A stretch of 60,723 nucleotides of DNA, the filler included, from Platydemus manokwari (lineage: Eukaryota): the NCBI GenBank assembly GCA_037951405.1. It is 5 parts of 5 records of this genome, joined end to end, with 100 filler letters (N's around TTAATTAATTAA, not from the genome) between each part and the next. Parts side by side here need not be neighbours in the genome. Positions count along the whole stretch, not along the records: positions 35,021 to 49,226 come from JBBMOY011505859.1; 4 more parts are not named here. One strand, 5' to 3'. This document shows positions 5,201-59,712 of the stretch, piece after piece. The translations under genes and the position numbers were made by a program. How positions within the stretch are numbered: the first letter of the stretch is position 1; each line of letters opens with the position of its first letter. The notes under the pieces were generated by a model that searched no databases, was not told the DNA's origin, and saw nothing but the letters and a program-made list of their open reading frames with translations.

Positions 5201-5724
5201 TCAAATATTTACAATCATTGATTATTATAATTATCAACTAGCAATCGACAACACCAAAATTCCCAAACCATTGCTACTAAAATCGATGACAAAATCAAAC
5301 ATTTAAATGCTGCAGGTTTCTTTGAATTAATTATAGATATAATAACGTAATATCAATATTAATGTATACCGTGTTTCATTGGTTATTTATAATAATATAT
5401 ATTTCGAAATCAATAATAAATTAACTGTCACTGATTTGTACCGCACACACACAGACGCACACACAGACACACACACAGATATATATTCAGTCTAATTCGT
5501 CGAATGTCATCGCGAATCCAATTATCATATCACCAACAAATCAATAACCATTCATTTCATTTGATATTATTTTCGATACTCGAATTAACCCACTTAATGA
5601 TCTGTCTTATTAAATATCTCGTAAAATGTGATCAAATTTGATTGGCTGGATAGATGGCCATAAAGAATGACATAAGTTATAAAAAGTTCCTTTTATAAAT
5701 TTTATGGAAATGCTTGAGCCACAT

Positions 5725-5850
5725 CTTGACCTCACACCCACATGAAGAATGAAGCTACTCACCATAGCCCATGTTATGCCTGAAATCATTGTCAAGTATT
5801 TTAAGAAGTGTGGCATGAGCAATGCCCTTGAAGCTCGGAAGATGATGCGT
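5725..5850 (+). mobile_element. pogo/Tigger-family transposase C-terminal relic
   Basis: DLTPT*RMK and PEIIVKYFKKCGMSNALE..SEDD match the pogo DDE_1 C-terminal pattern (TPTG..K.P..; IVKSFKKCGISNALDGSEDD). Confidence 0.65.
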
Positions 5851-6702: not shown

Positions 6703-7350
6703 CAGTGGTTTTCAACCAGGGTTCTGCGAAACCTTAGGGTTTCACCAATGCACTGCAGGGGTTCCGCAATTTCAACAACGAACAAATAAACAATATGTTA
6801 AGTTCAATTTCAAAAATCGATTTTATTATTATTATTATTTCATTATTATTTTATTAATATTTATTGCTTAAATATACTAAATTTAACATAATTAAATTCC
6901 CTACGTTTGGAAAATCACTTTGCCCTATCACTAACAGGTTTGCTTTTATATATTTTTCTTCCTGGTTAAAAAGGAATATCCTGCAATTGCCCAGAAAACG
7001 CTACAACTTCTTGCGCAATTTTCAACCCCATATTCGTGTGAATTTGGATTTTCAGCTCTGACAACCAGCAGACACAAGAAACGAGCTTATTCATGTGCGT
7101 CTGTCAATAACACGACTGAATCTTTAAAGAGTTTTGCAAGAAACACCAAGCTCAAATTTCTCACTGAGTTTTGATAAGATTTTGTTTTCATTTCATCAAC
7201 AAACATGTACAATACTCTGAACATAAATGCTTTTATTTCATTTTAAAAAATAAATGTTGTTTTCTGCATAAAACATTTAAAGAATTGCTCCTCGAGCCAG
7301 GAGAATGTTTCCGTGGGGTTCTACTCCAGCAAAAAGGTTGAAAACCACTG
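6703..7350 (+). mobile_element. Non-autonomous hAT (Buster/Charlie-type) element retaining the dimerisation domain
   Basis: Perfect 15-bp TIRs CAGTGGTTTTCAACC / GGTTGAAAACCACTG. 8-bp TSD ATTTATAT / TTTTATAT (7/8 match). Internal KEYPAIAQKTLQLLAQFSTPYSCEFGFSAL is an hATC motif. Confidence 0.9.
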
Positions 7351-7721
7351 TTTTATATTATAAATGTTGGTTCAACATCAAAGGAAATAAAAACATTTCA
7401 TTTCACACTTAATATGTTTAATTTAATCATAATCTAATCGTTTTCAAGATAAATGTTGTATTGTTATGTTCGTATGTTGTGATCGATTATGGATTTCTCA
7501 ATTTTTTTACATGAAATCGACGGTGATTTTAATTTGAGATTTACAAACTCGAAACCCTTCAAATCGTTTCAAAGTGTTAAAATCACATTGTGTAAATAGT
7601 TTTATTCGATTCGATTCCATTTTTATGTCGACGTTATTAATTATCTCTTGTTCTGTCACATGCACTGGATCCAAACATACTTTTTGGCATATTTCATATA
7701 ACTTATCATTACATCATTCAG

Positions 7722-10700
7722 CATTGAGGTTATTACGGCCAGCGACGTCTGATATCCAGGAGGAAATAAGCCTAATGAAAGCTGATTTCGAAAGCAATAA
7801 GGATGTTGAGAAGGTATTTTTTATTATTAGCTGGGTTTTTGATGAGTATCGTAAGCATGGAAATATTATTTTTATTTATACTGTTTGTGTGTGAGATTGA
7901 TTAATCCGGATGTGTGGTTGTTTTATGAGCTTTTATGAATTGATAATTTTTTATTCGATTTTTGATGTTGCTATTCGGATACCAATGTGAGAACTTTTAA
8001 AGGAATTAAATTTTTAAAGCTATAATTTAAATCTTATATAAAATATAAAATATCAGTGGCTTACCCCCACCAATCTGATGTTTTTAATGACTCGCAAATT
8101 CATTTTCATACGATAAACACTAGCGATCTTTTCACAATAATTGTTGCATTGACATCCTACTGAATGTAACCATATATAAAAACAGTAAGATTAAAAAGAT
8201 TACCAAAATTAATCACTATCAATGTTTTTACTAAATGTTGTAATGAATTCTTTCTTATTCTAATAATACATATAATAATCTATATGGCATTGATAGACAA
8301 TGATCGCATCAGCAGCTTTACTTAATGTGCTAATAAAATTGTGTTGCTAGAATGGTCTGTTGCTAGAGAAAAGTTAATTGGAATCATGATATCGATTAAT
8401 ACAAAAAGTATCTTTCTTTACGTCAATAGCTTAATCGGTTTAAAAGATGTTTTATATGTAATCGCGAATTAGAAATAACGGCACCTTATTTTTACTCAAA
8501 TTGTCGATAGTATGCACAAAAAATATAATGTTATTCGTCAATAGAATTAGATCACTTATTTCTATTCGACGGTAAAATGCTGTGTTATATTCAAGAAGTG
8601 CCTGGAATGAAAAATTTTTCACTGAATTCAGTCAGTCGATATACTTATAAATTCCAAATCATTGGCACATGTTAGAATTGTTGAATTTCTAGAGAATGCA
8701 TTAAAAATTACAAAGAGTAATGATAAACCCCTTTATTAATAATAGTGACTGAATCTCATATCATCTGATAGAGAGTCTTTTGGCATGGTAAAGGTCCTGA
8801 AAATTTTGAATGGGAAGAATATCTCTACATGGCGACGGACTCGAAAATTAAATTTAACTGAGCGCCTGAATTGGATAATAACATCATTAATTCTTTGATA
8901 TCTTGGAGACCAATTTAAGTATAGTAATATTCTAATTCTCTCAGAAGATTTAGCACCTAATGAGTGTCAAATCAGGAAAGTAATCGAAAATTACTGGAGT
9001 CGTTCCACGAAAATTAAACGCTAAAATATTCCAGTCGGTGCCTAGAACTTATATTGATATACCCGTTTTATAACTTATATATATATCGTCTCAGTCGGTA
9101 TGGTAATATATTCATTTTTTCGATTTCTGCTCCTTCTAATTAAATCAAAACACCATGAATATTATCATATTTCTCTGATTAGAGTTTATTTACATTTTTT
9201 TATCAATACAGTTCTTGTGGTGACATCATTTGACATCGATTCTTTACCAGTTATTATAAATTCAGAGTGTTATGAACATATTTTCATATTTTCTGTTGAG
9301 ACATCGGTGGATTATTTATGACAAATGCTTGATATATACAATTGATATACACTAAATTGATAATTCTAAACACTCTAGTAAAAAAATTACATTTTAATCA
9401 CTACAGATATAATTTGGTTTCAACCAATCACTTTGGTTATCGATTGTTTTTATCTCATTCTGTCTATTATTGAAGAAAATAATGATTGGAAGCGGTTTCG
9501 TGTTTCTCTTACGATTTTTTGATAAAATTGTCTCTTGTAGCAGTGTTTCGAGTTAATTTGGCCAACTATAAACATCCAATCAAAGCGATCGAAATATTTG
9601 CAGAAAGCGACATTCAGAATCGCTTCCAAATTAGCTCGATAAAATTAAAATTAATTTTGTAAAATGTTCAGAAAAAGTCCATAATCAAATTAAGAATTGA
9701 ACCAGTTTTTTGGTAGATAAAACCGTGTGATTTCTGTTCAGTCTATTCTTTTAAATAACTCATTCATATTAACTAAAATAATTGATGAAAGAAAGTTCTG
9801 AAAAATTTCAAAGATCTCATCAACCATATAATAAAGCTAACAAGTTTTTAAGAATGTATTGATTGACCTTTAGAAATTGTTTTACGTAATTGTTTATCAC
9901 TGTTGATTAATAATATATTGATTTATATTGCAAGAAAGAATAGTACTTTGTGCTCTTTGATCTTTCGAGAAATTCCAAAAACAATCTGTTTAGATATGCC
10001 AATCTTTACAAAATGTATTAGCCAAATTTACATATGCAATAATCTCATATTTATATGATGTCTACAAGAGAAATGCTTGAGCAGAACTGATTATCTCAAC
10101 CAATGTGCTTTTGTTATCTGATAAATCAAATAACGACCACCGTTTAAAGAAGAATGAATACATCGAATGTCTCAATAAATTTAATAAATAATTATTTACA
10201 ATATGATAATTTATGGTTAATATTTCGGGAATATGGTATAGATCATCATTTTATTTCAGGTTAATCTATGTGGCATTATTCGAAACAGAACTTTGTTAAT
10301 GGCTTTAATAGTTGGCATTGTATTGCATCTGTCTCAGCAATTCTCGGGAATAAACAATGTATTGATTTAGTTCTTTTTTCAATTTAAAATTATAACCCAT
10401 CTCCATACTCTGTAATTTCTCTATTTGATAGAATCAGTTACAAAATTTGGTATTAAATTGATTTGGTCTTTACAGATATTTTACTATTCGGCCACTCTTT
10501 TCGAATCGGTTGGTATTAGCAAGGAAAACAGTGGATATTCCACTTTAGGAGTTGGTGGCATTATGATTTTGATGACTTTGGTTTCGTTTCCATTCATTGA
10601 ACGATGCGGTCGTCGAGTTTTGCATATTGGTGGTTTAAGCGGTATTTGATTTATCATTCTCTTTTTGATAATAATTCTCATAACAATCAAGGTTGTCTCT

Positions 10701-11809
10701 TTACGTCTGTGTGTTTCACGATATTTTACTCGCTCAATTCAACGGTTTACAGTTTCAACTATCTCAGTGTGATCAGTGCTTTGCTCTTTGTGGCTTCTTT
10801 TGGATTTGGACCAGGTGAGGAAGTTTTTATTATTTTTGTTGTTCCTTATTATTGCGGACCATTATTATTGGTTAGAAATTATAATCTTTTTGATGATCAA
10901 ATAATATTTAACTCATTGCTTTGGATATTTAATAAGCCATTCCTTCATTGTTACAGCGTTATTGTGGCGGATACACTCATGTGGAACCAAAGTCACAACA
11001 GTTTTTGAAATTCAATCGTTAAATGAAAACTAATATTGATATTATTTTTATTAATATTATCATTATTATTATAAATATTATTTTCATATCCAGGCTCTAT
11101 TCCGTGGATGATGATAGCAGAGATGTTCCCTCTAAGTAGTAGATCTACAGCGGTTTCCGTTGGTGCCTCTGTAAATTGGCTGGCAAATCTTATTGTTGGA
11201 TTAATCTTCCCATCACTTCACGTGAGTTGTTAATGTTTGGAAATAGTTTTAATATCTACGTCTATCTTCATCAAATATATATGATTCCTCATCAATATTT
11301 ACTTGAAATATTTCAGTTGTAATGGTTCTCATTTAAACAAAACTCCATTTATTATTTCCATATTGTGACGTGTAATGTAAATGAACGAATATTTTTATCT
11401 TATCTTATCTTACTGATTTGTTTATTTCAAACCAGCGGCGAATAATACCAATGTAGTGTAATAATCAATTGTTCTGATATCGAAATGAAATCAATGGATT
11501 CGATTCTTATTTATAAGTTAAGAGTGTACGATAGGCTACAGTTTCACTAAATAGATTAACCATTATGACTATCATCAATTGAGCCTGTTGCAATAAACAA
11601 CATAACATTGTTCTTCGATTGATGATAGTAGATTTTATCTCATTTTAATCATTTATCAGGAAGCTCTCAAGAATCTGATATTTATTCCATTTATCGTTTG
11701 TCAAGTGCTAGCATTAATCTTTCTGGGATTCAAAATGCCCGAAACGAGAGCAAAGATAGTCGAAGAAGAATCATTCACCAAATTACCGATTCAATCAACA
11801 GCAATGTAG
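7722..11809 (+). CDS. Facilitated glucose transporter (SLC2A/GLUT class I-like), 3' part. Exons 7722-7813, 10260-10358, 10476-10641, 10692-10814, 11094-11221, 11660-11809
   Basis: GT-AG bounded, phase-consistent exons encode ALRLLR..DIQEEISLMK, LSQQFSGINNIFYYS, ERCGRRVL, FGFGPGSIPWMMIAEMF, NWLANLIVGLIFP and MPETRAK, ending at TAG 11807-11809. 5' exons not found. Confidence 0.92.
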
Positions 11810-34920: not shown

Positions 34921-35020
34921 NNNNNNNNNNNNNNNNNNNNNNNNNNNNNNNNNNNNNNNNNNNNTTAATTAATTAANNNNNNNNNNNNNNNNNNNNNNNN
35001 NNNNNNNNNNNNNNNNNNNN
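34921..35020. other. Artificial contig spacer
   Basis: 44 N + TTAATTAATTAA + 44 N. Confidence 0.98.
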
Positions 35021-35317
35021 TTTTATTAAGATCATTACATGATTGATACAATATATAAATGTAATTTTGGTCTTATCTTTTAGGTATTTCAATAATAATA
35101 ATAGTAATGATTATAATAATAGTGATAATAATAATGATTGTGATGAAGTCTAAGGAAACATGATTAATGTTTTCAACCTTTAAACAGTATTGATATTATT
35201 AAGTAAATGAATTAGGTATTTTTGTGGCTTCAAATGGTAGCTTTTAATAACCAATTAGCTTGGTGACAAATAATTCTTATCGATTCATCTTTAGTTGTGT
35301 TATTGATTTCTTTCTAG

Positions 35318-38300
35318 GTTCTATTCCTGTCGTAACACTCAATTATTCTTCATTGATGTTCAAATCATCTTATTCACGTGATCAAGTAGAAACTTGTGTC
35401 AGGGAATTGATTAATGCCACCAACAGTTCCATTGCTAATCAAACTAGCACCGAACTTGTTTTCACAAAAATCGGTCGCTTACAAATACGAAATCAACAGG
35501 TGAAATTTAAATTTTACAAAAATTTCATTGCCAATATTGATGGGAGTGGCAAAATTATCAATAGCATGCAAAATGTAATGTTTTTGTACTTTGTAATTTG
35601 ATGGATAAATTATTTCATCATTAGCGACCAGGAACAGCTGATTCGGTTATGTCAGAGAGACCACCAACAAGATCATTTTCCAATGTTATACCATTACCGA
35701 AGTAGGTTTGCAATTTAATATAGTATTCTATTTCAGAATTTTATCTATGTGATATTAGAAATATATTTTCTCAACAAAACTCCCACAAAGAATCCCAATA
35801 ACAATTTTATTACTTCTTCGTTACAAAATGTGAAATGATAATCATATAACTCAGAGCATATTAATTCATTATTATATAACAGGGGTGGCCAACCGGTCGA
35901 TCTTGAAGCCAATTTTAGTCTATCGCGTGAGATGTTATTCAAATGAAAAGTCGATCTTTCGTACACAAAAGTTGGCCACCTCTATTATATAATATAAACT
36001 CCATTAATTTCATTTAATACAATAGAATATTAATTTATTGATTTTTATTAATATGTCGTTAATATTACGAGTACTTATATTTGATAAATAAAATTTTATA
36101 TAATTTTCATTTTTATATTTATGATTTTCATTTGTTATTTTCGTCTGAAGTTATGGATTTAAGCTTATTCGATGGATTTGAATGATAAAAATCATAAATT
36201 CACTTCGAACTTTATCAATTCTAAACCATTTGGGTATGAAAAGCAATTATATGAGAAAGTGCATTTATCGCTGACCTATTAAGCGAGTTTATAAAGAAAT
36301 GAAAAAAAGCATTTCTCCTTAATATAACATTATATAAAAAGTAGATAATAAATATGCATTCTAATTTTGTCATATTTGGGGCTGATAACTTTTAAAAGGT
36401 ATTTTTACTACATTCTGAACTCGATTACTATTTTATTATATCAATTAAATATTGATCGAATTATTATCTGAACTTGTTAATGAGGATTTTGATTGGAATT
36501 TCAGAATATCGTCTTTCAATGATTGTCATAGACTTGAGACTATAAATGAGAGGGATGTATTCGAATCGAAAAATTTAGATTTAGAAACATCTAACGTTTT
36601 GAGACTCGATGAAGATGGTAATCAGAATTCCAGTTACACTCAGCAGTTTGAAGATGAAGGTAAATAATTTTAATGAATGCAAATTGCTTCATAAGAATAA
36701 CTATTATAATATAATAATAATTATAAGTACTATTATTATCATTATTATTACTTTGTGATTGCATTCAATGTTTTATTATTATCAGCATCATTATGTTTCA
36801 TTTTAGCTGAAGATTGTAATTATATAAGTCCTTTAACTGAATCAAACAACTTCAACGCAATTCCTAATTCTGTTGGTATGAATCAGACATTTTCTGTGAG
36901 TTCCCAATCCGTAACTGAAAAGTCCACGAATTCAGAAAATTGCAACGGAGCCTTATGCGATACAGTTACAACCGACCACAACGATATATTAACATCTATT
37001 GATATCGACCTCAAACCACTGCCTACTCCAAAGCCTCCGTCGAGATCATCTTTAATTTCTCAACATAAAAGACCCACTTCTGTTTATTCGAACAGCCGAC
37101 CATCAACATCAGCTTCGTCGTCATGTGGACACCCAGGTCCAGCTGGTCAAGATTTATGTTACGTTTGCTATCAACGAGAAAAGAGAAATGTACCTATTTC
37201 TTTCACAGAACAAATCAAGGAGCGTGAAAAAGAAGAAGAACGTGTCTTACAAGCTTTTCAAAATATGAAAGATACCGAACACTTTCTTAAGGAACAAGTA
37301 TGCCGATAATGTTTTTTGTTTCTAATAATAGTAATTCATTCTAAATTTTGCACAGTTTCAGAAAGGCCTTTAGGAAAATTATCCTAAAATTTCTCTTTTA
37401 ATTCCAAATTCATTTTGAAAAGAATTTTAACTGTTAAATGTACTTACAGTGGTTATAAAATGAATTTGTTTTTCACTAGGAGAATCTTTTATCAAGAAAA
37501 CACGACAGTCAAAAAATTGCCGCATTTAACGCGGGCGTGGCTGATGCAGTTCGTAACCAACAGAGATCAAAAGATCCAAACATGTATCGATCATATTTAT
37601 TTGAAAAGCGACCCTTGACTCCTCCGAGAATAATTAAACAGAATCTGCTCAGGTAATACACCAGTGGTCTCCAGAGTGAATCTAAAAGTTGAAAATCATT
37701 TAGTTCTCAGCTTGATAAACAGGTTGAATGGAAAGTAAACTCCAAAAAGAAAAACGATGAAGAGGAAGCTTTCGTCGAAAGACTGGAACAAATTCAGTTA
37801 GCAGAAGATCTTGCCAAGCAACGTGATCAGTATATTAAAGATAAAGAAAAGTCAAAAGACCTTTACAAAAAAGCTTTGGATACACAAGTTTGATTTTCTT
37901 TGGAATCATTTTAAAATACAGACAAATCGATTTTTAACAGATTGATTCTAAACCATTACCCATTCCAAAATATCAGCCGGATTCAGAAGAACCGTTTTTC
38001 GGAAAAAACGATGTTACTCAGGAAAAACTGATAGAAAAGCGATCAAAAGCTCGAGAAATTTCGAAGAACCAACTTGAAGCTGCTGAACAAAAGAAACGAG
38101 ATGCTTTGATAAAGAAAATCCAAGAGCAGACTCACGAGGAAAAGGTTCTTGACAAAGTGAAACACGAGTAAAAATATATTTCAATTGAATATTTTTGTGA
38201 TTGATGCAAATATGTAAACACTTGTACTGGTTTTGCAGTGAAAAAATGTTAATAATAACAGCTATTTATTCAATAAACATTATATTTTATGATAACCCTG

Positions 38301-38991
38301 ACAAAAGTAAGATTCCAAAAAATTAACTTGCCAGAATAATGATTGTGGCCTTTCTGAGGATTGGGTCAGATATAATATCTTCTCAACTGGTGGTCCACGC
38401 AGTGTCCTTCATCAAAATGTTTTATTCCTCATCTTCCAACTGATGAGAGAAATCTTCGGTAACTTATTTTATGTCCAAGAAGTCATTGATCGTCCGTAAA
38501 TTACAAGTTTGAGAGAATTATCATTTTGACACTCACCCGAGGGCCTCGATCATCTAGACGTTCTGTTTATTGTCACCAGTATAACTGCAAATTAAGAGCC
38601 CCGCTTGATACACCACATAGTTTATATATTTTGTTTAAATTATTAAAAAATTAATTTTATCAGAAACATCATCATTATTTAATATCGGTTATTAAGCCAT
38701 TTTCAGATTATTTTCATTTTCAGTGTCATTGAAGATCGAGCTAGACGATATCAAAGAGCTTTACAGAATAGAATGAAATTGGAAAATGAGTGGGAGCGGG
38801 CAAAGGAAGAGAAACAAGAGCGAGATCTGATGGAAAGATTGAAGATCTCGATGCCGGATAAATTGTTGATGCATGAACAGTGTGATAAATATACGAGATG
38901 TACACAATGCAAAAGAAAAGTCCACAACATTGGTCAAAGCAATGTTTGGAAAGAAACTTATTTCAATACTGGCACGAGATTTATTTATTAG
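35318..38991 (+). CDS. CCDC81: Coiled-coil domain-containing protein 81-like, 5' incomplete. Exons 35318-35574, 35625-35701, 36505-36659, 36807-37297, 37480-37652, 37704-37887, 37941-38167, 38724-38991
   Basis: IPVVTLNYSSL..SRDQVETCVRE..ELVFTKIGRLQIRNQQVKFKFYKNFI (HU-like domain), AGQDLCYVCYQR and C-terminal HEQCDKYTRCTQCKR..NIGQSNVW, recognised from memory as CCDC81 motifs. GT-AG junctions. Confidence 0.85.
35880..35984. mobile_element. 105-bp hAT-type MITE in a CCDC81 intron
   Basis: TIRs CAGGGGTGGCCAAC / GTTGGCCACCTCTA (12/14 match); perfect 8-bp TSD TTATATAA at 35872-35879 and 35985-35992. Confidence 0.85.
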
Positions 38992-40202
38992 AATACTTCA
39001 AGGGAATAGTTCTCCAATGATTTAGTCAAACATAGAGGCCATTCTACTTTGCTTGTGAATGACCGACTATAGATAACATGAAAAGTTTTGATTAATTTTC
39101 TTTAATTCTCAGAATCTATTATGAGTTCTTGAACTATTTTAATTAGCTAATCGGTCTATTATATTTTTGTATTGTTTGAATGTGTTAATAAATATTATTT
39201 TGCTATTTTATTACAATCCAAATCAATTTTTTTTGGCTCGTTTATTTAATTTTTTATTGTATGACTTAGAATTGTTCAAGTTGGTAGATGAATGAATCAC
39301 TAAAAATCAAATGAAACTAATTGAAAATGGAATTTTAGTCACAGAAAATTAATTTAGAAGATAAAATTGCTTGAAAATTGTTTTAGTCGTTAACTTTTTA
39401 CAAGCAAATACTGACATAATCGAAAAATGTGAGTTAAACACAATAAAAATAAAAGTCCTCTTTTCTGGTGTATTTCAACTACATGGTATAAAATCGCGAA
39501 GCAACTGTTGAATTTTGTTCCTCAAGTTAATTTGGAATATTTTTGAGAATGGACACATTAACGGAATATGTGAATTTAGTGATTCCACATTGTTGAGGAA
39601 TAAACTCAAATCAATAAATTATTAATAAATGGTGCCCTAATTTTTTGAAATCGCTTGCTTACTATATTATTTTCATTAGCAGCTGATTTATTATATTTTC
39701 AACAATATTTTATTGGGTTTTTAGTGATGTAAAAATAATTTTTGGTGCTCTATTTGAAGAGCTTATTAAGAGTTTACAGTAAGATTACGTTTTTACTAAT
39801 TAGATTTTTTTTAGTAATATAATTTTAATATACTTTCAATTTTCATTTTATGATTAAAATTTGATGCTTAAAGAACACGTAATTATACAATCAGAATTAA
39901 TCCAGGAGTTAAATACACTACACTGATACAAGCGCTGAGTTTGGTGACTATCAGAGTTAACAGACAATGATTTGAACATCATTAAAAAATGTCTTATAGT
40001 TATAGAAGTATAAAATATTCTTATTAATAATGCTATATAACAGTTTTATTTGCGTGTGAAGACATTAATGATTATTAATGTATAATTAGGAAAATTTTTA
40101 AATATATTATTTGTTACGTTAATAATATTTATGAAATGATTTTTATCCATTCCAGTTAGAAAATTTGAAAATTCGTTAAAACTGTTGAGTGAGATGAAAT
40201 TC

Positions 40203-40592
40203 TGCAAAAAGAAAAACGAAATTACACCTTGGAACCTTATTTTGGCACTTTGAGCATTTGGATGCCTGGACGGCCATACAGGCACCCCAATGGGTCAATT
40301 ACAGTGAAGCTAGCTAGTAAATTACAATCGTGAAAAAGGGCATAACTACACAGAACACATCTAGGAATTGACCAATCCCATTCATGTAAAAACCCAAATA
40401 GCCAATAAGAACACAGAAAGGCAAACATCAAATCAAACTGCAGTTCATCTTGACACAGAAAGATGCACACAGGTCGCGAGTATAAAAAGCAATGTAAAGA
40501 TAGTTAACTGCCAGTTGAAAGACAGATTTGGTGAAACTATTGAGCTCATATCGATTGCCGAGTTCTTTTCAGTGTGTTTGTATATTGATTAA
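40203..40592 (+). repeat. Dispersed repeat, copy A (diverged copy ~59402-59712)
   Basis: CAAAA(A)GAAAAACGAA.TT.CACCTTGGA.CC...GCACTTT.AGCATTTG.ATGCCT.GAC...ACAGGCA is shared with 59.4 kb; weaker similarity continues downstream. Confidence 0.75.
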
Positions 40593-40599
40593 CATACCT

Positions 40600-41415
40600 T
40601 CGAGGAGTCAGAGTTTGATATTCCTTAATACCCCAACAATTATTTGGTGAGCCCTTATTCGAGCACTTTTACGATAATGTATTCAGAGAACCAGGATTCA
40701 GATTTTGCGTACCATCTATCAACACTTGCAGAAAAAGCATTCGGACCGAAAGCAAAGTGGCCAGCACAAACACGAAAAGTGGTTGAGGATCAATTTTTGA
40801 AAAGAGTGCATCAACACATCAGCACAGTGCTCAGTCTCGTCGATTATACCACCTACGATGAACTCATAAAAAGTTATGAGGGTAGAAATGAACTCTACAT
40901 CTATAATTCGTCAGCCTGTCACGTATGCCACAGAAACAGATCTCTCCTTGATGGGAAAAATTGAGAGGCTATCACCCAAGAAATCCATTGACAATATCCT
41001 CCCAAAATCCACGCGATTATTCACAAAATCACGTCAATTGTCGGTCAGAGACTCTCCAAAGAAGCGGCTAGGGGTGATATGCTTTAAATGCAACCGAATT
41101 TTACATTATGCCAATCAATGCTAATTTACATTTGCCAGTGAAAATCTAACGAAATCTCGAAGTAGTTCCACTTCTTCAATTCTTAAAAGGCAAGATTCAC
41201 CAATTCAAGACAATAGATCATGCTTTACATGCGGTAAAATCGGTCATATTTCGAGAGACCTTAAAAAGGAATCTTCACAAAATCACCGCAAAGAGACATT
41301 GTTAACACCCAGGGTCATATTAAATCCTTCTCCTGCGGTCACTTCCGGCATTTTGCCAGATCATGTCCGCGAAACACAAGTAGATTTCAGCAATCGTCTT
41401 CCAAATAGAAAGTAA
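40600..41415 (+). pseudogene. gag: Retroelement gag (Ty3/Gypsy-like) with two CCHC zinc knuckles, disrupted
   Basis: DFAYHLSTLAEKAF..VVEDQFLK..TYDELIK capsid-like segment; CFKCNRILHYANQC (41080-41121); CFTCGKIGHISRD (41221-41259, last Cys lost). Frameshift near 40875 and stop at 41122. Confidence 0.8.
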
Positions 41416-41550
41416 GCTTTCAAGACGATCATTCAAAGTTAATTTAACACAATCTGAATCACAAAATCCATGGGAATCAGAAATATCAATGATGAAAAAT
41501 AAACTGGAACTATCGATCGAGAGACTAGAAGGTGAAAAGGGCTTAATTTA

Positions 41551-42810
41551 ATGATCAAACCAAATCAGTTGTTGAGATGGAGAAATGAAGATTATGATAG
41601 TAGTGGTGAGAATATTGATGATGATGAGAGTATTAAAAAATTGAAAAGTTGGAAAATAAAATTAAAGACTTGTATGATGCATTTTTGTGGAAATTTCGAG
41701 AATAGTTTGGATTACGGTGACGGACAGCCGAGAGCTTTCTAATTTAGGTGGAAACGAAAATGAATTATGTTCGGTTATGTCGTCGCAGCTTTTTAGGAGT
41801 AGAACAATTAATTCAGGATTTATGAAGGTAATGACGGAAATGTTAGATTTTATAGCAGTTACTTATAAAGGAAAAGATTTTGAGATTTTTGTTGAAAATT
41901 GGGTAGGAGATTTGATTAAAGTAAAACTAAATTCTTTTTCGAGAGTTCGACATGTTAGAAGCCAGATTGTCGGAGGAGATGCTCCGCTTACGTTTTTGAA
42001 TCAAATTCTACGATATGATGATTATGTGATTATTTATGGCATCGTGCCAGAAAATGATATTGTTGTGAAAATGGAAAAAAGATGTATAGGAGAATGGAAG
42101 AACTCTACAGAAATGCTAAAGCAAGTGAATACGCTTTTAAAGGAGGAGTCATTGAATTTTAAGGAAATAGTGAAAATTTCGGAAATTATCCTTGAAAATA
42201 TACCAATGTTTCGTAATTTGAGTGAGTTAATATATTTCTTGGTACCGTATATAGAACAATATTTACCTATTAATTTTTACGTTGATTGGAATAATATAGA
42301 AAAAGAAGGCTTAAATCTACCTCCGTTTGAGATCAGTTTGATGAAATCAGGAGTTGAAATAGAGAATGTCAAAGAGCATTGATATACAAAGGTAAAAAGA
42401 ATCAGAAGAAGGATTTCAGAGAATTTGAGAAACGAAGCGGTTATTATCTTATCATATTGCGATCAAAATTTAGATTACGATGAATATTTGCTGAATTATA
42501 AATGTGTTGCTGGAAATGCAAACAAAATTAACTTCGAAGTTCATTACGAGAAAGGCATTATTAATGAGAACGTGGAATATGAGCGAGCCAACTTGCATAA
42601 AAATGACGTTACGTACGAAATTCAAGAGGCAGTATTTAACTTGCCATTTCATCAAGATTTTAATACTGATAATCATAATAATAATCATACAGACATTATC
42701 ATTAAAAAGGAAAATGCAGAATTTAATGAAATAGAATCAATCAACAATAAAAATCGAATATATTTAATGAAATCAAAAAATAAGAAAAGTAAGATATTAA
42801 GAAGTGGAAT
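41551..42810 (+). pseudogene. Unknown coding region leading in frame into the glycoprotein
   Basis: ORFs 41687-42382 and 42425-43099 share a frame and are separated only by TGA 42380-42382. ORF 41551-41742 may join by a frameshift. No recognisable domain. Confidence 0.6.
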
Positions 42811-43830
42811 GTTATCTTTGAACTTTTGGAGTAAAGCCATAATTTTTATGATGATGTTAATTATATTTAGCGTCGGTAATGAAGTTAAAACCTTAATAGC
42901 CTACGATTGCTCTAAAACAGAAATGGGAAAAATTTATTCGTTAATGGATATAACTGATTGCCCGGAAGCACATCCGATGAAAATCTCTAGTGGCGAAAAT
43001 GAGCATTATTTTCTATATCAGGAATCAAATTTTATTAGAGTGCAAGTAAAGGAATGCGTCGCTAAGAAGACAACTTTTGTTTTTCACTGTGGTAAATAGA
43101 GTCATACATCATTGATTATGATGAAGGCAATCCCCAGACCATTAGAGATAGACGCTGACAACTGCATAGCAGCTTTAAATTAAAAATAGACACTGGAATT
43201 AAATTATCAGCAAAAAGAGGTTATATCATGAGGGAATCCATTGTAGTTAGAGGATCCGTAGAAGCAGATGGAGAATGTAACGGAGAACCATTTAAATTTT
43301 CTGGGAAAATTGTCGATAAAGCTGTAGTGATGGAGGAATATTCCATCGAAATACGACAATGGGAACGCGACGAACTGAATGGGCAAATGCAAATTCATCC
43401 ATTCTGCAACTCAAAACACAAAAGTGCCAAACCGGTGAGCCAGTATAAGTTTATAATGTAAGGTCACAAGATTGCAATTTGGCATTTTTAAAAGAAACTA
43501 ATTTAATAGAAGTTAAGGGTGAACGAGTAAATGAAGTTATTAACAGCTTACATTCCGATCGAACACCCAAGAGCAAGATAAAGGCCATCCCAGTAAGAAC
43601 AAAGCGAACCCCAACTGTTTTAATGTCAATCTTGACTGAAGATGGAATGCGCTTTATCAAAAAAGACAGTACCAAAATCTGAAAAATTAGTGTATCAGAC
43701 CAACTATAAAAGATTATATGTATCAAAAACAAAATTAGAAAATGCCAAGGAAAAAGTCCATAGTGGCGATATCAAGTTGGCAGCGAGAGACATCGCTTGC
43801 ATGAATAAATTTAAGGAGGACCAAGAAAAT
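42811..43830 (+). pseudogene. Chuvirus-like (class III fusion) glycoprotein, env-like; N-terminal half, disrupted
   Basis: Hydrophobic signal FWSKAIIFMMMLIIFSVGNEVKT, then LIAYDC..YSLMDITDCP, LYQ...VQVKEC...FHCGK*SHTS, GSVEADGECNG..FSG..KAVV..YSIEI and VYQTNYKRLYV. This follows the Cys/motif order I recall for chuviral G proteins (YDC..SL..C; V.QC..CG.HSH; G.C.G; T.HP.L). Confidence 0.75.
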
Positions 43831-46799
43831 GATAGTGAAATCAATTCTAAGTCTTATCAGTACTCTGAGTCCGTCTTGACCCTCAGGTAGTATTATGACT
43901 TTATGAGTTTTGTCATTTATTCGCCTCGACGATCACTTCTTATATGATGATAAGTGGATCGGCGTAGAAATCGATTTTACTTTAGTAATCGCTTCTATTA
44001 TTGTCCTATTTATGGTATTGATTTTGGATGTTGTTGATTCTTACTACCAGTCTCACTTAATAATGCACCAGAATAACTTTAAAAGGTGATGAATGATAAT
44101 GAATTATATATATTATGAAATTGTGATGTCTTAGGCCTACTGGCAGATTTAAAATCAATTTAATGTGTGTACTACAATGATTTATTATTAATTACAATTA
44201 TACACCAATTACTACTTCTATACAATTATGGGGTTATAAACTACTACTTGTATGATACTGTATACAATTATTAACAATGAATACGATATACATTGGTTTT
44301 ATGCAACTACTTTTATACACATAAATGACATATAAACGACAATTCAGGGAAGCAGATGTTGGACCAACAGTTACCCTTCGTGCTATTGGGTCAGTGTCAA
44401 ATATTCAGAGTTTTTTTCCGAGCTCGGGTCGATAAATAGGAAGAATGTGCGTTATATATAATTGAATATGTTATTTTAAATGTATTATCTTACTCTTTGT
44501 TTTTCCAGTCGAAAATACTGGAAATATCTTAATCTCCGTCCCGCCAATGAATCGTCGGGTTCTTGTATACATTTTCTTATCGTGTTCTGGTGTTCTCGTA
44601 TTGTATATCGTGTGCTTTAATGATTACGGTTATTGCCTTATATAGACAGTGGTGAGTCATTCACAGATATTCTCTGCGTATATTAATGCACGGTAATTTA
44701 TTTTATTAAATGCATGGCTATTATTTTATTTAATGCATAGATATTACTTTATTTCAGCTGGATATTTGATTCGCAGTGCGTGATAATTTATTGCGCTGGA
44801 TTATTTCATAGATAGATTCACTTTGTGTTTTGTTTTAATTAGTGAGTTTTTATAACGTTATTTTAATGTAATTAATTTTATTATATCAATGCCGGGTTTC
44901 TTATTAATTATAGGGATTGTAAATTGGGGTTTAAATTATATATTATATTATATATTATTATATATTACTATATAAAATATACCCATCAGTCACAAAATTC
45001 CCCTGAATTTTCATAAAAAATGTTTTTTCATGCAATAATAAAAATTATATATTAATGCATGCAATTTATGTTAAAAATTTGCCATAGACTCCAAAACCCA
45101 ACAAAAATATGATTCATGAAATAATATCTGTATTATCTGGGTCAATGTTACCAGATGAATGATTTAATTATGTTAGCTATGTATGGTTTAATAATGTTAT
45201 TCAAACTCAACAGCGTGAGTTCTTCATTGCTTTCGCTTGTTAGTATTAACATTGACTATTTTAGTGAATAGCGGTCGATAACAATGTTATTTGATATTTC
45301 GATCTGATTGATTTTTATTCGTAAATGACAATCAACACTTTAAAAGGTTATTATTTAGAAATTTGTTATTTTGTTAAAAAATTTTTAGTGATAATTTGAT
45401 GTATTCTACAAAAACGTGTAATAATTTTATTGAATGTGTGACATTATTATTATTCTGTATGTTACGATGTGTATGATATTTCTTAATGGGTGTTGCAATA
45501 TTTCAACTCAACAGCGTGAATCCTTTTAAAATTTGTTAATACGGTTTAACTATCAAAATAATCACACACAATTTCGATATCAAAATGTATTTATAATATT
45601 ATACAACAAATCGTACACACTAATTTAACTCAATCAATTTTTTACTACAAGTTGTTTTGGTTATCTCACCGGGAATTGTAATTCAATAAACATATTATTT
45701 TATATTACTTTTGTTAACTTATTTAACTTTTTCTTTTGAATATGATAATCGATTTTGTGATAATTGACTTGATCGCAACAAGATAACAACAGAAGTACTT
45801 TTAATCTACGCAAATTGGGTGTGCTTTTTGGTTTAATAAATTATATTTCAAAATTTGGGTTACATGTTTATGGTAATGATAAAATATTGAAGTATAGAAA
45901 TAGTAGAATCAATAAATAGGTTGAATTTATAATTTATTTAATTAAAATAATCAATACAATACATCAATGTTGGGTTATAAATTATTATTTATTTATCCTA
46001 ATGCACCATATGAAAAACAGATTCGGCGAAGCGTTGAGTACCTAATCGACAGGAGAAGGTTAATTGTTTAATTGTCTAATCGCCAAAACGTATCAAAGGA
46101 ACTGGAAATAATACAGAGTTTTAAAAAATCAGTATTGTGTTGATAAATTTGATAATATAATAATTCCAAGATTAAAAATGAAATTGAATTTTTATACAAG
46201 TTTAAATATTATAGAAACATTTTCAATTACCGTACACCTTGTCTTCACAATTGATTAAAGCGCAAGTAAGTCACATTATCAAATAGTTAGAACTCAAGGA
46301 GACTGATTAAATGAACATAGTGTGAGTTTAAAAGAAACTGACAGTAAAAATACGAACGATATTTCATAAACCAATGATTTAGTTAAATTTATTAGTAAAA
46401 ATTATTTTACTTTGAAATTCACAAGCCCAGCATCTAATTTCAGTCTTATTAATTCGAATATTATATAATATAGTTCGTAACTATTAGTTACAGAGGTCCA
46501 TGGATTATTTATGAAGCCTTTTAACAAATTGAAAACTTACTATGCGTATTGGGGGTGCTATAAAAGAAAAGAAAATGTGATAACCCCCCTAAATCAATAT
46601 TCTAGTATTATTATAAATTATATATTTTACTAATATACTTTTATGGTTTACAAATTCATTGAAATTATGCTGATAAAAACATTCATGTTGCTGATATAAT
46701 CTCAATCGATTTAATTATTGAAGAAAATTATCATTCCAACTAAAAATTATTATTGAACTGAAAATATCGATAAATGTGAAAGAAAAATAAAATTATTCT

Positions 46800-49130
46800 T
46801 TGCATATTCGACAATATTTCAGAAATATAAGCGTGGATTTGGATAGCCTTGAATTGCATTTTCAAATTACTGGAATCACTGGGTTCAGATTCATTTAAAT
46901 CTGATGAGCCATGATTAGCGTTATTCCATTCAATCGATATCTATAAAAATATGTTCACGCAAGAACTATTCAATAAATTATAAAATTTAACATCTATAAA
47001 TCAGTTATTACTATTATTAATTTAAATTTTTATAAAGGATATCCATATTGGATATTTAAAAATGCCAACAAGTTGTTCCAGACTCATTTTTTGTCTGAAA
47101 TCTCTGATAAATATTTTTCGTATCAATTTATTTTTAAAGTATAATTTTATCCAAAAGAAAATTAAACAAAACATCATTTTTTTCTCACCTTCAACTAATT
47201 CATTATATCGTGAACGAGATTTGAGTTTGTCGATATTTGGCGCCAACATTTCAAGGCTAAACAAATAATGGATGACAAAAAACAAACAATTTGTAATACG
47301 TTTCACGCTTCATTTATTCTCTTTTCCGAATGATTTAATATTTTGGTTTCGTTTCACGATTCGTTGAATTATTTCTGCTAATCGAAGCTTTCAATTTAAT
47401 TATCGATTTTTTTATTGATACTGCATGAGAATTGTGGGCAAGAGATTTTATAATAATATTAAAAACAACACTGTGGTGACATCCAAGATTAATTGCAACC
47501 TTAACGACGATACTATAAGATGAAGTTTTTTTCTAAATTGTTAGCGCTTATTGATATTGATTCCAATGCATCTACAAGTCATTCTTTGATAGTAAAGTAA
47601 ATATCTCACGAATGAAAGTATTTTTGAAGTATTTTTATGAAGTATTTTTTAGCAGTAGCCATTTCATTCAAATTATCCTCAAAGAAATCCAGGAGAAATA
47701 TTTCCAAAATCAATATAATATTCCATTTTCAAAAATCATTGATCCTCACATCATCATAAGGTTTGTGAGGGTTGTTGGTTGGAGCCATTTATTAATTCAG
47801 CAGGTATTTCATGTATTGGCAGATTTTTAATGGCGAATATGTTCTCAGATAAACCAAGTTTACAAGCAATATCATTTATTAGTTGCTTTCAATAATTTCT
47901 TTCACATCACCGTGTTCACATCTCAATTACTAAGATAAGTATTACAATATTTCATTGAATCGAAACATATTAATATTTATCTCTTTTGTATTTTAAATCG
48001 CAAAACAGTAGTTCACAGAAAATAATCGATAAATTAGGCTTATAAAATTCCAACAGATAATTGATGAAAGAAAACGAGAAAAAAGTGTTTGATAGTATTC
48101 GATATTGGCCATAAAAAATTGAATCGAAACCATGAATAGGACGGTATATCAGCATCTCGGTTTCAATTTCTTTATACTGAATATAATAAATCTTAATACA
48201 ACCGGTCTCACAATCGTCTGAAACACAAATCGATTTTCGCAAAACAATTAAATAAATTATCGAAAATATCTCTACCAGTTTAATGACGACTTTGTCGGCT
48301 TTTTCAATTCTGTCCGAATCTGTTAATTGAAATATTCTAATTAATCCTCTCAATTATAGAGATCATCAGTTTCAAACCGCATAATCTCAAACCAATCGCG
48401 CCACATATCAATGGGAAAAAAAATTAATTAACAATTATTTTCTGTTAATAAGATTTGGATTTCTCTATAATCTTTATAATTTACCGCTGTGATGATAACA
48501 AGTATTGATATCACTTCCAAAAGTGAGGAAACCTCTGAGGAAATTTCTCTATTTCAACCACATTATTTGGAGGAAACACAATGAGAGTCCATTAAAGCAT
48601 AATTTTTCTGAAAATGGAAATATTGAGAATTGTTTCATTGATTGTTGTGACCTTTTCATCAGTTAGTGGAACATAACAGAATGATCGGGAATATGTCATT
48701 ATTTATTTAGACATTTGTTATGGTTCAAAGGAAACATAAAATAATCTATTATTAAATAGAATTCAACATTCTTTTAGCTTCCGGTCTGGCTTAGTTGTTA
48801 ATAACCATAGATTTCTGTGAAAGGAATTTCTGAAAATCACTGACTGATACAGACTTTTTTAATAATGATATTTAGAGTTTGAATGGCTCATAATCCGAAT
48901 TTTAACAGACGATTATATTTGTGGCCGTAAAATAATCGAATATTAAATAAAGTATCTTGACGGTTTGGAAACTGATATAACATAAATGGTCGCACAAATA
49001 CATCAATTTTTTAAGGATAAGAAAATCACTTTGTTAGCTTCCAATTGTTCTGGCAAAATATAAAGTACCTTTAATCTTCAATGGATTGCGAATAGTATCA
49101 TAATTATTATTTCTTCTGGATTTTTCATAA
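46800..49130 (-). pseudogene. Decayed, apparently intronless coding-like region of unknown family
   Basis: Successive broken minus-strand reading frames (47022-47306, 47970-48353 and flanks) with protein-like composition; no family recognised. Confidence 0.3.
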
Positions 49131-49226
49131 ATTTATTTATAAATCGATACCATACAGATTTGAATCTTATTATTAAATGATAATAGTTATTATTTCTGGA
49201 TTTTTTATAAATTTATTTATAAATCG

Positions 49227-49326
49227 NNNNNNNNNNNNNNNNNNNNNNNNNNNNNNNNNNNNNNNNNNNNTTAATTAATTAANNNNNNNNNNNNNNNNNN
49301 NNNNNNNNNNNNNNNNNNNNNNNNNN
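49227..49326. other. Artificial contig spacer
   Basis: 44 N + TTAATTAATTAA + 44 N. Confidence 0.98.
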
Positions 49327-49327
49327 A

Positions 49328-50614
49328 AAAGATTGGGATAAATTAGAACACTTATTGAAAAACCGAGATACAATCAAAAAAGCAGACTTTCTAATATCAG
49401 CTTCTCAGATACATAGAGAAGAATTCTATAAAAAATTCTTAGAGGATAATGCCGAAGTCATGCCTGAATTAAATACAGAAATATTAAAAGAAATTCTAGC
49501 ATATCTAGGAATGAAGGATTTTACAAGACTAATTCGAAATCTACCATCTGACGAAATCTATGATATCATAGAACATTTTACACAAGAAATACAAGAAGAG
49601 ATTATCTGTAAATTACCTTATTATAAAGCACAAGTATTAACAGAGGTATTATCATGCCCTACTGAAAGTGCAGGTAGAATGATACAAAAAGACTTTATTA
49701 CTGCTCATCCAGATTGGACTATCAACCAAGTCATCGAATTATTAAGAACGTATAAAACAAGGCATATACAAAAAGAACTATACGATATATATATAACTGA
49801 CCCTGACAAAAAACCAATCGGGAGAGTCAATCTAACCGCATTATTATGTAACGATAGGAACACTAAAATTTCCAATATTATGCTTACAGATTTCAAAAAA
49901 ATAGAAACTGGCTTAGGGCAAGAAGAAACGGCAATTCTATTCCGTAAATATGAGTTACTTTCTGCACCAGTAATAAATGAGAATCAACAAATGATAGGTG
50001 TAATATCATGTGACGATATTATGCACATTATACAAGAAGAAGCAGAAGAAGATCTATTACATCTAGGTAAAATATCAGAAAATGACTTGAATGCAGGTAT
50101 ATTTCATACATTTAAAAGAAGAATAGTATGGCTTTTTATTACTTTCTTTACAATAAATATAGCTTCTTTTGTAATAGGTTTTTTCAATGAAACACTCAAA
50201 AAGTCTGTAACAATATCAATTCTAATGCCAATTATTGCAGCAATGGCTGGTAATAGCGGAATGCAATCAGCTACTATAGCAATACGCGCACTTGTAACAG
50301 GGCAATTATCGTATATAAACTATAGAAGAGTATTATTAAAAGAACTATTAATAGGTCTATTCAATGGAATAGCATTATCTATATGCATATTTACCACAAT
50401 ACTATTAAGATACCATAATGTAGAGATAGAATTCATTTTTGTATTCTCAATGCTATTTGTTGTAACAATCGCAACAATTGTTGGATCGGCTATTCCAATC
50501 ATAATCCATAGATTGGGTGGTGACCCAGCACTTTCATCTTCTGTCATCACAAGTTCTATCACAGATATCCTATCCTTTCTAATATTGTTATCAGTCGCTT
50601 CAATTATCCTATAA
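49328..50614 (+). CDS. mgtE: Bacterial magnesium transporter MgtE, 5'-truncated by the contig edge
   Basis: Intronless frame open from 49328. MgtE N-domain, ESAGRMI, tandem CBS domains (YELLSAPVINENQQMIGVISCDDI), EEAEED, RIVWL, MPIIAAMAGNSGMQSAT, DPALSSSVITSSITDI. Confidence 0.95.
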   Translation, partial: KDWDKLEHLLKNRDTIKKADFLISASQIHREEFYKKFLEDNAEVMPELNTEILKEILAYLGMKDFTRLIRNLPSDEIYDIIEHFTQEIQEEIICKLPYYKAQVLTEVLSCPTESAGRMIQKDFITAHPDWTINQVIELLRTYKTRHIQKELYDIYITDPDKKPIGRVNLTALLCNDRNTKISNIMLTDFKKIETGLGQEETAILFRKYELLSAPVINENQQMIGVISCDDIMHIIQEEAEEDLLHLGKISENDLNAGIFHTFKRRIVWLFITFFTINIASFVIGFFNETLKKSVTISILMPIIAAMAGNSGMQSATIAIRALVTGQLSYINYRRVLLKELLIGLFNGIALSICIFTTILLRYHNVEIEFIFVFSMLFVVTIATIVGSAIPIIIHRLGGDPALSSSVITSSITDILSFLILLSVASIIL

Positions 50615-50633
50615 ATAAAATCATATAGAGCAA

Positions 50634-51090
50634 ATGAATATAAAAAAAATAAATATCAATATCTTCAAAAAACATAGTCAACAGTCTAATACTAAAAAAT
50701 TTCGTTATAGAAATACTGTGCTATTCAAGATATTACTTATTTTTGTAAATTCATTAGTCAAAATGGTACGTAATGATGGGTTCGAATATGCAGGGTATAT
50801 GACATTTCTAATGATATTATCAACTTTCCCTTTCATCTTTCTGCTTACAGCACTTGCTGGTTTTGTCACATACGTTTTTGGTACAAGCATAATCAATATG
50901 TCAGTTATTATAGACATAATTTTCTCAGGGTTACCAGACGCTACTTCAAGAAGTTTGAAACCTTATATATCAGCAATAGTGAATATCCCTAATATCAACT
51001 TGATAAAAATGGTGATTGCAGGTGCATTATGGACAAGTTCTTCATTAGTCGAAGGAATAAGAACTATTCTCAATAAAATATATGCTAATG
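50634..51090 (+). pseudogene. yihY: Bacterial YihY/BrkB-family membrane protein, C-terminally truncated
   Basis: Starts 19 bp after the mgtE stop. DGFEYAGYMTFLMILSTFPF and GALWTSSSLVEGIRTILNKIY resemble Rickettsiales YihY. Similarity stops after NKIY; the ORF tail to 51182 appears to be read-through into non-homologous DNA. Confidence 0.85.
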
Positions 51091-51398
51091 CTTATAGTTC
51101 TATTACCAGAGAGAGACTGCCAAGAATTTGTTTGTACATATTTTATATTTCAGAAATATCTATCTATACACAATCTAGATAATACTTCTATTTTGGCATG
51201 AATGTACCTAATATGGTAATTCCATGAAAATTACTTATGAATAGAACTTTAAAATAAGACATTCTTAAAAGCTTGAAAAATCATTAATGTAAAATATTTT
51301 TGAAATAAACTGTCATTTGATTTTTATGGTCATGGGGAATAATATCGAATGTACCGACTCATTCAAAGTTCAGTTAATATAGATTTTTTTGCTTATAG

Positions 51399-59063: not shown

Positions 59064-59401
59064 GTTAGTCATAGCTATTATTTTTCGAAAGTGTGATTTT
59101 CATACAAAAGAATCCTGATAAATTTTCAAAATATTGTTTTTATTATTAAAATTCACCTGAAACCCAATAATTGCTCTCAATATATTCTAAAATTATAATT
59201 ATTAAAAATAACCAAATTTTCAAAATTATTTCACAAAATTGTAGAGAATAACATTATAAGCAATCATTCAATGGCCTTCTGAAAAAATGTTTCATTTTTA
59301 AATTTAGGTTTCATGCAATGGATTATTGATCAAAATATTGAGAGTTCCGTGCAATTATCTCTCTAAAAAAGCGCATTGTAATTGTTGAGTGTTAAGAAAT
59401 C

Positions 59402-59712
59402 TTCCAAAAGAAAAACGAATTTGCACCTTGGATCCCTTGTTTCAGCACTTTAAGCATTTGTATGCCTTGACAACTGAACAGGCATTTCAACCATAGTTGA
59501 CTTAGATGAAAAACGATATTTGGAAATAGGGACACAATTACACACAACATAAATAAGGATTGACTAATCATGGACATACTAAAACTAATAACCCCAATGG
59601 AAACATGAGAAATCAAGGTTGAAATCAAAATGTGATCTCGAGCATAAAGATGGTCAACTGCTAGTTTGGAAACCAATTTTTGGTTGCGTTTTTTGAGACA
59701 TTGTATTGACTT
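59402..59712 (+). repeat. Dispersed repeat, copy B (see 40203-40592)
   Basis: Direct sequence similarity, strongest over the first ~90 bp. Confidence 0.75.

Follow-up and report, generated by a model that had tools for sequence, protein, structure and literature searches.

Planarians carry Burro/GYPSM1 elements, giant Ty3/gypsy elements of high copy number, over 30 kb in length and with long LTRs, whose order is given as Gag(2–3 CCHC)–Ubi/SUMO-like–BCL2–Env–PR–RT–RH–IN in the sections of Arkhipova & Yushenova 2019 drawn on here (PMC6431247, with Grohme 2018 and Jurka 2007 cited within it as sources). According to the same sections, Burro env lies in frame between gag and pol and is like mononegavirus fusion proteins, and Dugesia japonica contains decaying fragments with stops and frameshifts (PMC6431247). 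Nine flatworm errantiviruses of GAG-ENV-POL order with an HSV/gB-type Env, six of them in Schmidtea and with up to 215 copies, appear in the portion of Chary & Hayashi (eLife 2026, PMC13524379) cited here, among them Smed_errantivirus_1 and _2 of the C1a group. The words ‘ubiquitin’, ‘Bcl’ and ‘Burro’ are absent from the main text of that article; we infer Smed 1/2 to be Burro elements on the grounds of their host, size and copy number. In mosquitoes, a chuviral glycoprotein is carried by the BEL/Pao elements called Anakin (PMC10084718).

We analyzed a window of 60.7 kb, meaning the whole stretch of DNA under study. Its stretch at 40090–43782 is very probably what deletions and truncation have left of a Burro-like Ty3/gypsy element in which pol lay after env. 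On the + strand, a capsid half, three zinc knuckles, two ubiquitin-like (Ubl) domains, a signal stretch and about half of Env follow one another in a coding relic of 3.1 kb. These parts, their order and linkage, and the breaks were observed directly. Segment by segment, the locus reads as follows:

40090..40640, + strand: high-copy 5' non-coding segment, likely LTR 3' end (contig depth; TATA-like motif at 40481)
40645..40654, + strand: candidate tRNA primer-binding site, weak (motif beginning with TGG, 6 bases downstream of a CA)
40698..40871, + strand: C-terminal part of the Gag capsid (matches residues 133–190 of P0002 at 84% identity)
41080..41366, + strand: three CCHC zinc knuckles (motif scan; three intact knuckles at corresponding places in P0002)
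41367..41869, + strand: linker after the knuckles, same polyprotein (52–65% identity to P0002 residues 327–523 across frames)
41870..42079, + strand: Ubl domain 1 (profiles A3 and A4 against PDB; homologous to domain 2)
42080..42319, + strand: helical spacer (conserved in P0002, P0008 and P0015; helices in both low-confidence models)
42320..42553, + strand: Ubl domain 2 (profiles A3 and A4 against PDB; broken by a stop at 42380)
42818..42892, + strand: internal signal stretch with basic residues in front (best 19-residue Kyte-Doolittle mean 1.88, from 42818)
42893..43782, + strand: gB-type (class III) Env ectodomain, front half (PF24664; colinear matches to eight long relatives)
43783..45150 (end approximate), + strand: high-copy non-coding segment after the env break (depth 4,000–11,100 at 43771–45025)

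In searches with a FERM exon of the host, ranks 1–18 (67–78% identity) were taken by 16 named proteins, all from flatworms, and 2 without a name, the first named non-flatworm match being an annelid protein at 67%. By this sequence evidence the host belongs to Platyhelminthes. The proposal of an earlier note on this DNA, a relic of an env-bearing LTR retroelement in a flatworm-like host, is upheld.

Fragments of one decayed polyprotein

Gag remnant, middle frame and Env are not three genes but fragments of one decayed polyprotein. The main guide to the front part is P0002, an open 674-aa relative with Retrotrans_gag at residues 75–147 (E 8.5e-5, just below the Pfam cut-off). This single ORF joins capsid, three knuckles and Ubl1, is 52–84% identical to the window, and ends before Env. 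The capsid piece lacks a counterpart of the first 132 residues of P0002 and is interrupted by a frameshift near 40870. Knuckle motifs occur at 41080, 41221 and 41325, whereas 2000 base shuffles average 0.028 motifs and none of them reaches three; the first is intact, and the other two are degenerate, with one Cys missing in each. The gag with two knuckles described in the earlier note is present as a remnant, with three motifs instead of two. The knuckle region contains a stop at 41122 and a frameshift near 41275, and the linker contains a stop at 41406 and frameshifts near 41440, 41535 and 41680. The end of gag placed at ~41415 in the earlier note is a stop out of frame, and homology to P0002 continues across the frameshifts as far as 42277. 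Searches with P0002 of IMG/VR and GTDB genomes gave no close locus, nor did a search of JGI metagenomes, where one 33-residue match at 45% (L001) was not used.

The middle region resolves into a Ubl module. With profile A3 against PDB, the best 60 of 321 matches are all ubiquitin or ubiquitin-like entries; with the close-family profile A4, eight of the nine matches at E<=1 are ubiquitin-like (best E 0.003). No Ubl match came from the unsplit profile A2, and PDB sequence searches with Ubl1 alone or with the Env start yielded nothing useful. Confidence in the predicted folds was low (pLDDT 35 and 38), and their Foldseek matches were mostly ubiquitins at E >= 0.27, none at E<=0.001. In a 61-protein set, a homologue of Ubl2 was found in P0005, a CCHC-Env-protease polyprotein (iE 5e-8). 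A terminal di-Gly is absent from Ubl1 and occurs near the domain end in only one of nine Ubl domains examined; on this count, ubiquitin-type conjugation or DUB cleavage as a rule was rejected. Because the di-Gly end is lacking, the domains are likely binding modules directed toward the host ubiquitin-proteasome machinery and not conjugated. The long unknown frame of the earlier note exists, but as this module of the same polyprotein: Ubl2, the signal stretch and the LIAYDC Env share one frame, so the middle frame does not stand as an ORF of its own. The passage from linker to Env is spanned by two contigs, each from a diverged copy, at 42336–42939 (102 differences) and 42547–43024 (64). A word-index search with the Ubl2-Env frame among longer proteins gave no match.

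The Cys-rich protein starting LIAYDC was found as described earlier, at 42893 on the + strand after a hydrophobic stretch, and cleavage before LIAYDC can be inferred. Its assignment as a chuvirus-like (gB-type, class III) glycoprotein is supported, at the level of sequence, by a match to Pfam PF24664 (Monjiviricetes_fusion) that starts at the signal stretch (E 4e-12, 45.3 bits, cut-off 27; 3.1e-16 with X at stops) and by ~55% identity to the Env of Smed_errantivirus_1 (65/118, hand count). This is near the Env identity of Smed 1 to Smed 2, 63.7%; the other Schmidtea families are 27–43% identical to one another. Env is broken by stops at 43097 and ~43446 and by frameshifts near 43178, 43420 and 43675. 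Its homology ends near 43782 (43667–43782 across eight long relatives) within a protein of ~650 aa, and the membrane anchor is absent. In an Env tree of 30 rows and 110 columns, built without short fragments of the 57 matches, no starred group holds the window, which lies beside three fragments at 83/96; stand-alone glycoproteins form long branches.

PF24664 includes chuviral glycoproteins, and its stand-alone or BEL/Pao-linked members also begin xxAYDC, as would be expected if an endogenous chuvirus glycoprotein or an Anakin-type BEL/Pao env had come to lie beside an unrelated gag relic by chance. This is extremely unlikely. Such members score ~35 bits, whereas fragments reach up to 115 and a CCHC-Ubl-Env-protease polyprotein scores 96; Ubl2 is in frame with Env; and other sequences repeat the links of gag to Ubl and of Ubl to Env, so that gag and glycoprotein are truly linked, as the earlier note had assumed, and chance nesting is already largely refuted.

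Dezordi et al. in 2020 reportedly described Anakin as BEL/Pao elements with a chuviral glycoprotein in mosquitoes. Anakin and the focal copy share a glycoprotein superfamily (PF24664) within an LTR retrotransposon; Anakin has a BEL/Pao backbone and is found in insects, whereas relatives of the focal copy have Ty3/gypsy-type pol domains after Env. An Anakin-type backbone with env after pol was rejected, Env here following directly after gag-Ubl. The sole BEL/Pao-like match, P0054 (DUF5641 before Env), scores 35 bits.

Gene order in relatives and likeness to Burro

No protease, RT, RNase H or integrase was found in the window, and five relatives bearing RT-RNase H-integrase match it by tblastn (E<0.01) only in the env stretch, in agreement with the earlier report of no pol motif between gag and glycoprotein. 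Gene order was read from 11 long relatives, namely the 10 matches over 1000 aa among 57 plus P0060, a cluster member that does not count independently of P0017. Protease lies 3' of Env in nine of the 11 and 5' in none; RT-RNase H-integrase lies 3' in five (31–38% identity) and 5' in none. CCHC precedes Env in 5/11 and RT-RNase H-integrase follows it in 5/11, both in one ORF in 2/11 (P0024 and P0028). Pol 3' of env was thus directly observed in single-ORF relatives, none of those with pol exceeding 50% identity. Bcl-2 matches are present in P0014, P0016, P0022 and P0041. One long relative carries a label as a protein of a bacterial MAG.

Nothing of pol separates gag from the env that follows it in the focal copy. 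Since flatworm elements of this kind are ordered GAG-ENV-POL, this is nothing unusual, contrary to what was first thought (PMC6431247 and PMC13524379, in the portions cited). The same portions describe such elements in flatworms; the statement that captured chuviral env genes are described mainly in arthropods no longer holds. Of the two explanations offered earlier, a pol-deleted copy fits the position of pol after env in relatives, and no support was found for a non-autonomous gag+env family. The pol of the focal copy was likely once 3' of env and has been lost.

The pointer to Burro was apt. As in the published Burro order (PMC6431247, sections cited), a Gag with retrotrans_gag and two to three CCHC knuckles starts one polyprotein, and a ubiquitin/SUMO-like domain lies between Gag and Env; flatworm host and high copy number are also common to both. 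Unlike Burro, the focal copy has two Ubl domains and a short Gag-to-Env distance, and is without pol, an Env anchor and long LTRs. Likeness to Burro1–4 was judged by published domain description, not by direct sequence comparison. The BCL2-like, MATH and BIR accessory domains of Burro gave no Pfam match in the surviving frames, and the copy is therefore filed as Burro-like, not as Burro1–4; its likely place is among the Burro-type elements known from planarians. With Smed_errantivirus_1 and _2, as described in the cited portion of PMC13524379, it shares a gB-type Env and the GAG-ENV order, POL not being observable in the focal copy; those two are intact multi-copy elements of ~14.8 kb, compared with a 3.1-kb relic here. 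No dedicated report of non-autonomous Burro LTR elements in planarians, or of an anti-apoptotic function of Burro1, was found in the literature searched.

Flanks, state and origin of the copy

By contig depth, the focal stretch is a high-copy repeat. Summed depth is 5,600–9,900 at 40006–40507, compared with 14–40 in the flank, and a solo-like copy of the 5' segment, without gag, lies at 59294–59677 (65% by blastn in 378 columns; E 1.7e-21 by nhmmer); the segment is likely the 3' end of an LTR. The window holds no tRNA genes, and the candidate primer-binding site matched no tRNA. Neither an LTR pair nor a target-site duplication was found in the focal copy, nor was an LTR partner for the 5' segment; the likeness of 43783–45150 to that segment is AT-rich noise only. 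What lies at 43783–45150 is a different repeat or, if a large deletion intervened, the 3' region of the element itself.

Every depth bin from 40006 to 45276 is high and the two ends are highest, as for terminal repeats. This would suit a non-autonomous pol-less family (gag, Ubl and partial env), copied as a unit by a full Burro-like helper, with the window holding an old member. Short derivatives may exist in the genome, as suggested by an older relic in the same window that consists of a Ubl-helix-Ubl region only, between ~300-bp direct repeats (18817–19115 and 20398–20688, 64% alike). However, the focal copy has ends that do not resemble each other, 15 contigs carry different sequence in front of 43856, the env junction is shared by none among the contig matches listed (of 5,484 records), and capsid and Env are both cut mid-domain, leaving no useful gag+env product. 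We consider such a family quite unlikely.

It is very unlikely that a Burro-like fragment here owes its shape not to real deletions but to repeats that collapsed or recombined in assembly, the short-read assembly being fragmented. The window does have four scaffold gaps, one with a bacterial-looking insert beside it, and contigs of one run include no piece spanning the stretch; yet 34977–49227 is without a gap except at its ends, contigs match the single-copy flanks exactly, and the focal copy has diverged uniformly from other copies, as expected of an old insertion.

The focal copy, then, is best read as a deleted Burro-like element, and it is dead, an ordinary relic: the front half of the capsid is gone, env is cut midway, about eight frameshifts and at least four stops have accumulated, and there is no LTR pair. 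Capsid, whole Env and Pol cannot be made from it. A full element would have inserted and then undergone deletions and point decay.

Proposed biology of the parent element

We propose that an intact parent would translate one polyprotein. Its Gag would remain cytosolic, and the internal signal stretch would thread the Env ectodomain into the ER, where signal peptidase likely cuts Env free at LIAYDC. The Env membrane anchor would turn the chain back so that protease, RT, RNase H and integrase come to lie in the cytosol, and the element's own protease(s) would liberate the parts.

A broader idea, which we hold to be quite unlikely, is that the genome houses a tandem-Ubl, Bcl-2-less Burro-like subfamily spawning pol-less derivatives that full elements copy in trans, the Ubl domains being kept for acting on the host ubiquitin system. 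The derivatives would then be the gag-Ubl-env piece and the repeat-bounded Ubl-only element at 18.8–20.7 kb.

One dead copy matters little in itself; it adds one more flatworm family to the published GAG-ENV-POL elements with a gB-type Env. Two small additions accompany it: the middle region is resolved as a helical spacer with a Ubl domain on either side, and the single-ORF plan Gag-(Ubl, Bcl-2)-Env-Pol proves, from metagenome proteins, to be common to many diverged elements.

One polyprotein from the gag remnant into Env

The focal retroelement relic has the following layout, from reading of the sequence:

40600-43890, plus strand: gag remnant, then a long middle frame, then a glycoprotein starting at 42893

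A motif scan detected three CCHC knuckle motifs in the gag remnant, far above chance (mean of 0.028 in 2000 shuffles), rather than the two previously described, and the stop at 41415, formerly regarded as terminating gag, lies out of frame. P0002, a 674-aa protein, was the only relative found with the middle frame as query, at 66% identity across the query length. Its one uninterrupted frame encodes a capsid domain, three CCHC knuckles and the middle region. The window sequence tracks P0002 residues 133–659 across five frameshifts; residues 1–132 have no counterpart in the focal copy. The middle frame continues through a hydrophobic stretch (42818) to LIAYDC, the start of Env, in the same frame with one stop passed. 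Read in this way, the gag remnant, middle frame and Env are one predicted polyprotein, not three genes, and the separate unknown ORF of the earlier note becomes part of it.

The glycoprotein matches PF24664 (Monjiviricetes fusion protein; E 4e-12, profile positions 4–87), as expected from the chuvirus-like glycoprotein that had been claimed after gag on the same strand, and a second piece covers profile positions 134–186. Env homology stops near 43782, approximately halfway through the protein, before reaching the anchor, which is absent from the focal copy. Against Smed_errantivirus_1, a Schmidtea GAG-ENV-POL element of PMC13524379, 36/56 and 29/62 positions (55%) were identical, as counted by hand in two ungapped blocks (43007–43177 and 43180–43365, stop position omitted). 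For comparison, Env identity in Schmidtea is 63.7% between Smed_errantivirus_1 and Smed_errantivirus_2 and 27–43% between other families. Stand-alone and BEL/Pao-linked glycoproteins scored ~35 bits (HMMER), and an Env tree left relationships without resolution.

Probable ubiquitin-like domains of the middle frame

The middle frame contains two related domains with a helical spacer between them (iE 1e-4 to 4e-4 for their cross-hits, within a set of 61 proteins). Ubiquitin or ubiquitin-like chains made up all 60 shown of the 321 PDB hits to a nine-domain profile built from the window and its relatives, the best single-domain entry among the matches listed reaching E 5e-5. Because some of the nine members were picked by eye, the profile was repeated with the six closest domains only; it gave nine hits at E ≤ 1, eight of them ubiquitin-like (best E 0.003). 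Single-sequence searches missed this likeness, and Pfam ubiquitin was matched by 1/9 member domains. Predicted folds of the region were poor (pLDDT 35 and 38); the second, at low confidence, had a strand-strand-helix-strand order in both halves, and the Foldseek matches listed were mostly ubiquitins with non-significant E-values. The domains are thus likely ubiquitin-like, an assignment carried by the profiles. A di-Gly end was present in one of the nine domains checked and in neither window domain.

Decay, repeat nature and surroundings

The focal copy is dead, with ~8 frameshifts and at least four stops in its coding part. Summed contig depth, from contigs of one sequencing run that may be the source sample, was 14–65 in the flanks and 448–11,100 in every bin of 40006–45276, and most of the 5,484 matching contig records were <95% alike. 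A large, diverged family of repeats is thus evident, although the depth values are no copy number. Two contigs from diverged copies span the linker into Env; the link is therefore not peculiar to this locus. Related sequences occur elsewhere in the window:

59294-59677: gag-less copy of the 5' segment (the high-copy non-coding stretch before gag), resembling a solo-LTR fragment, from comparison within the window
19380-19969: older relic of the Ubl-helix-Ubl region alone, 61% DNA identity to 41979-42567

The 5' segment may be an LTR end; comparison with the 3' segment, the high-copy stretch after the Env break, gave no match. The older relic is flanked by ~300-bp direct repeats (64% alike), and the whole unit (18817–20688) is possibly a small non-autonomous derivative.

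Other features of the window, whose host genes around the relic lie within 7.5-55 kb, are:

13.6-15.2 kb, minus strand: FERM/protein 4.1 host gene
21575-21991, minus strand: 139-aa frame without Pfam match, resembling a DNA-transposon relic by eye
25-27.5 kb, minus strand: RGS DHEX-domain host gene
ending near 38991: coiled-coil host gene, which we take to resemble CCDC81
49327-51179, plus strand: adjacent, intronless, bacterial-type MgtE gene (Pfam MgtE, CBS, MgtE_N) and truncated BrkB/YihY-family gene
51.4-55 kb: aminomethyltransferase-domain host gene

An exon of the FERM gene assigns the genome to Platyhelminthes, in agreement with the flatworm-like host proposed earlier. The MgtE/BrkB pair begins right at a scaffold gap, and no gap separates it from the aminomethyltransferase-domain exons at 51383. 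Its best plasmid matches are 33% identical and no close relative was found in GTDB; the pair reflects either a joining of symbiont DNA during assembly or a genuine insertion.

Position of pol and the parent element

A HMMER search of 1.84 billion representatives returned 57 hits; domains were scanned in 22 of these, then in further ones and the cluster member P0060. Among 11 long relatives (10 hits >1000 aa plus P0060, from the same cluster as P0017), which are distant (31–44% identity in the Env start), a protease follows Env in nine and the remaining two stop at or inside Env. RT-RNase H-integrase lies after Env in five, neither it nor the protease lies before Env in any, CCHC knuckles precede Env in five, and several have Bcl-2-like or ubiquitin-like matches ahead of Env. 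In P0024 and P0028 a single frame spans knuckle, Env and full pol.

Several aspartic-protease-like domains stand in series after Env in P0005, P0010, P0013 and P0060, with up to four such Pfam stretches in P0005 and seven in P0060 (4,844 aa), which also has ankyrin and C2H2 domains. The record of P0028 (HBK71150.1), a hypothetical protein in a Flavobacteriaceae MAG, likely reflects animal DNA that entered a bacterial genome during binning. Env fragments closely similar to the window's are fused to MRP-L47 and FAD oxidase host domains in the predicted proteins P0004 and P0007, probably as gene-model artefacts over decayed copies.

The five pol-bearing relatives match the window in the env stretch only; pol is therefore truly absent from it, as had been noted. 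According to Chary & Hayashi 2026 (PMC13524379), whose list holds nine flatworm elements, errantiviruses of flatworms, nematodes and bryozoans have gB-type Env only, in the order GAG-ENV-POL. A pol-less family moved in trans is improbable; we are confident that the focal copy has the working plan of a Burro-like GAG-ENV-POL Ty3/gypsy element and most probably descends from one. We do not class it with the giant planarian elements Burro1–4 because a search for their Bcl-2, MATH and BIR domains detected none in it.

The anatomy, linkage, decay and repeat nature are observed features of the focal copy; the mechanism proposed for its parent draws on relatives and on general knowledge of polyprotein topology. 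An intact parent would make a single polyprotein whose Env part would be placed in the ER lumen by the Env anchor together with an internal signal sequence, while Gag and Pol would stay cytosolic. Signal peptidase and the element's own protease would then free the parts, and the ubiquitin-like domains would probably be binding modules.
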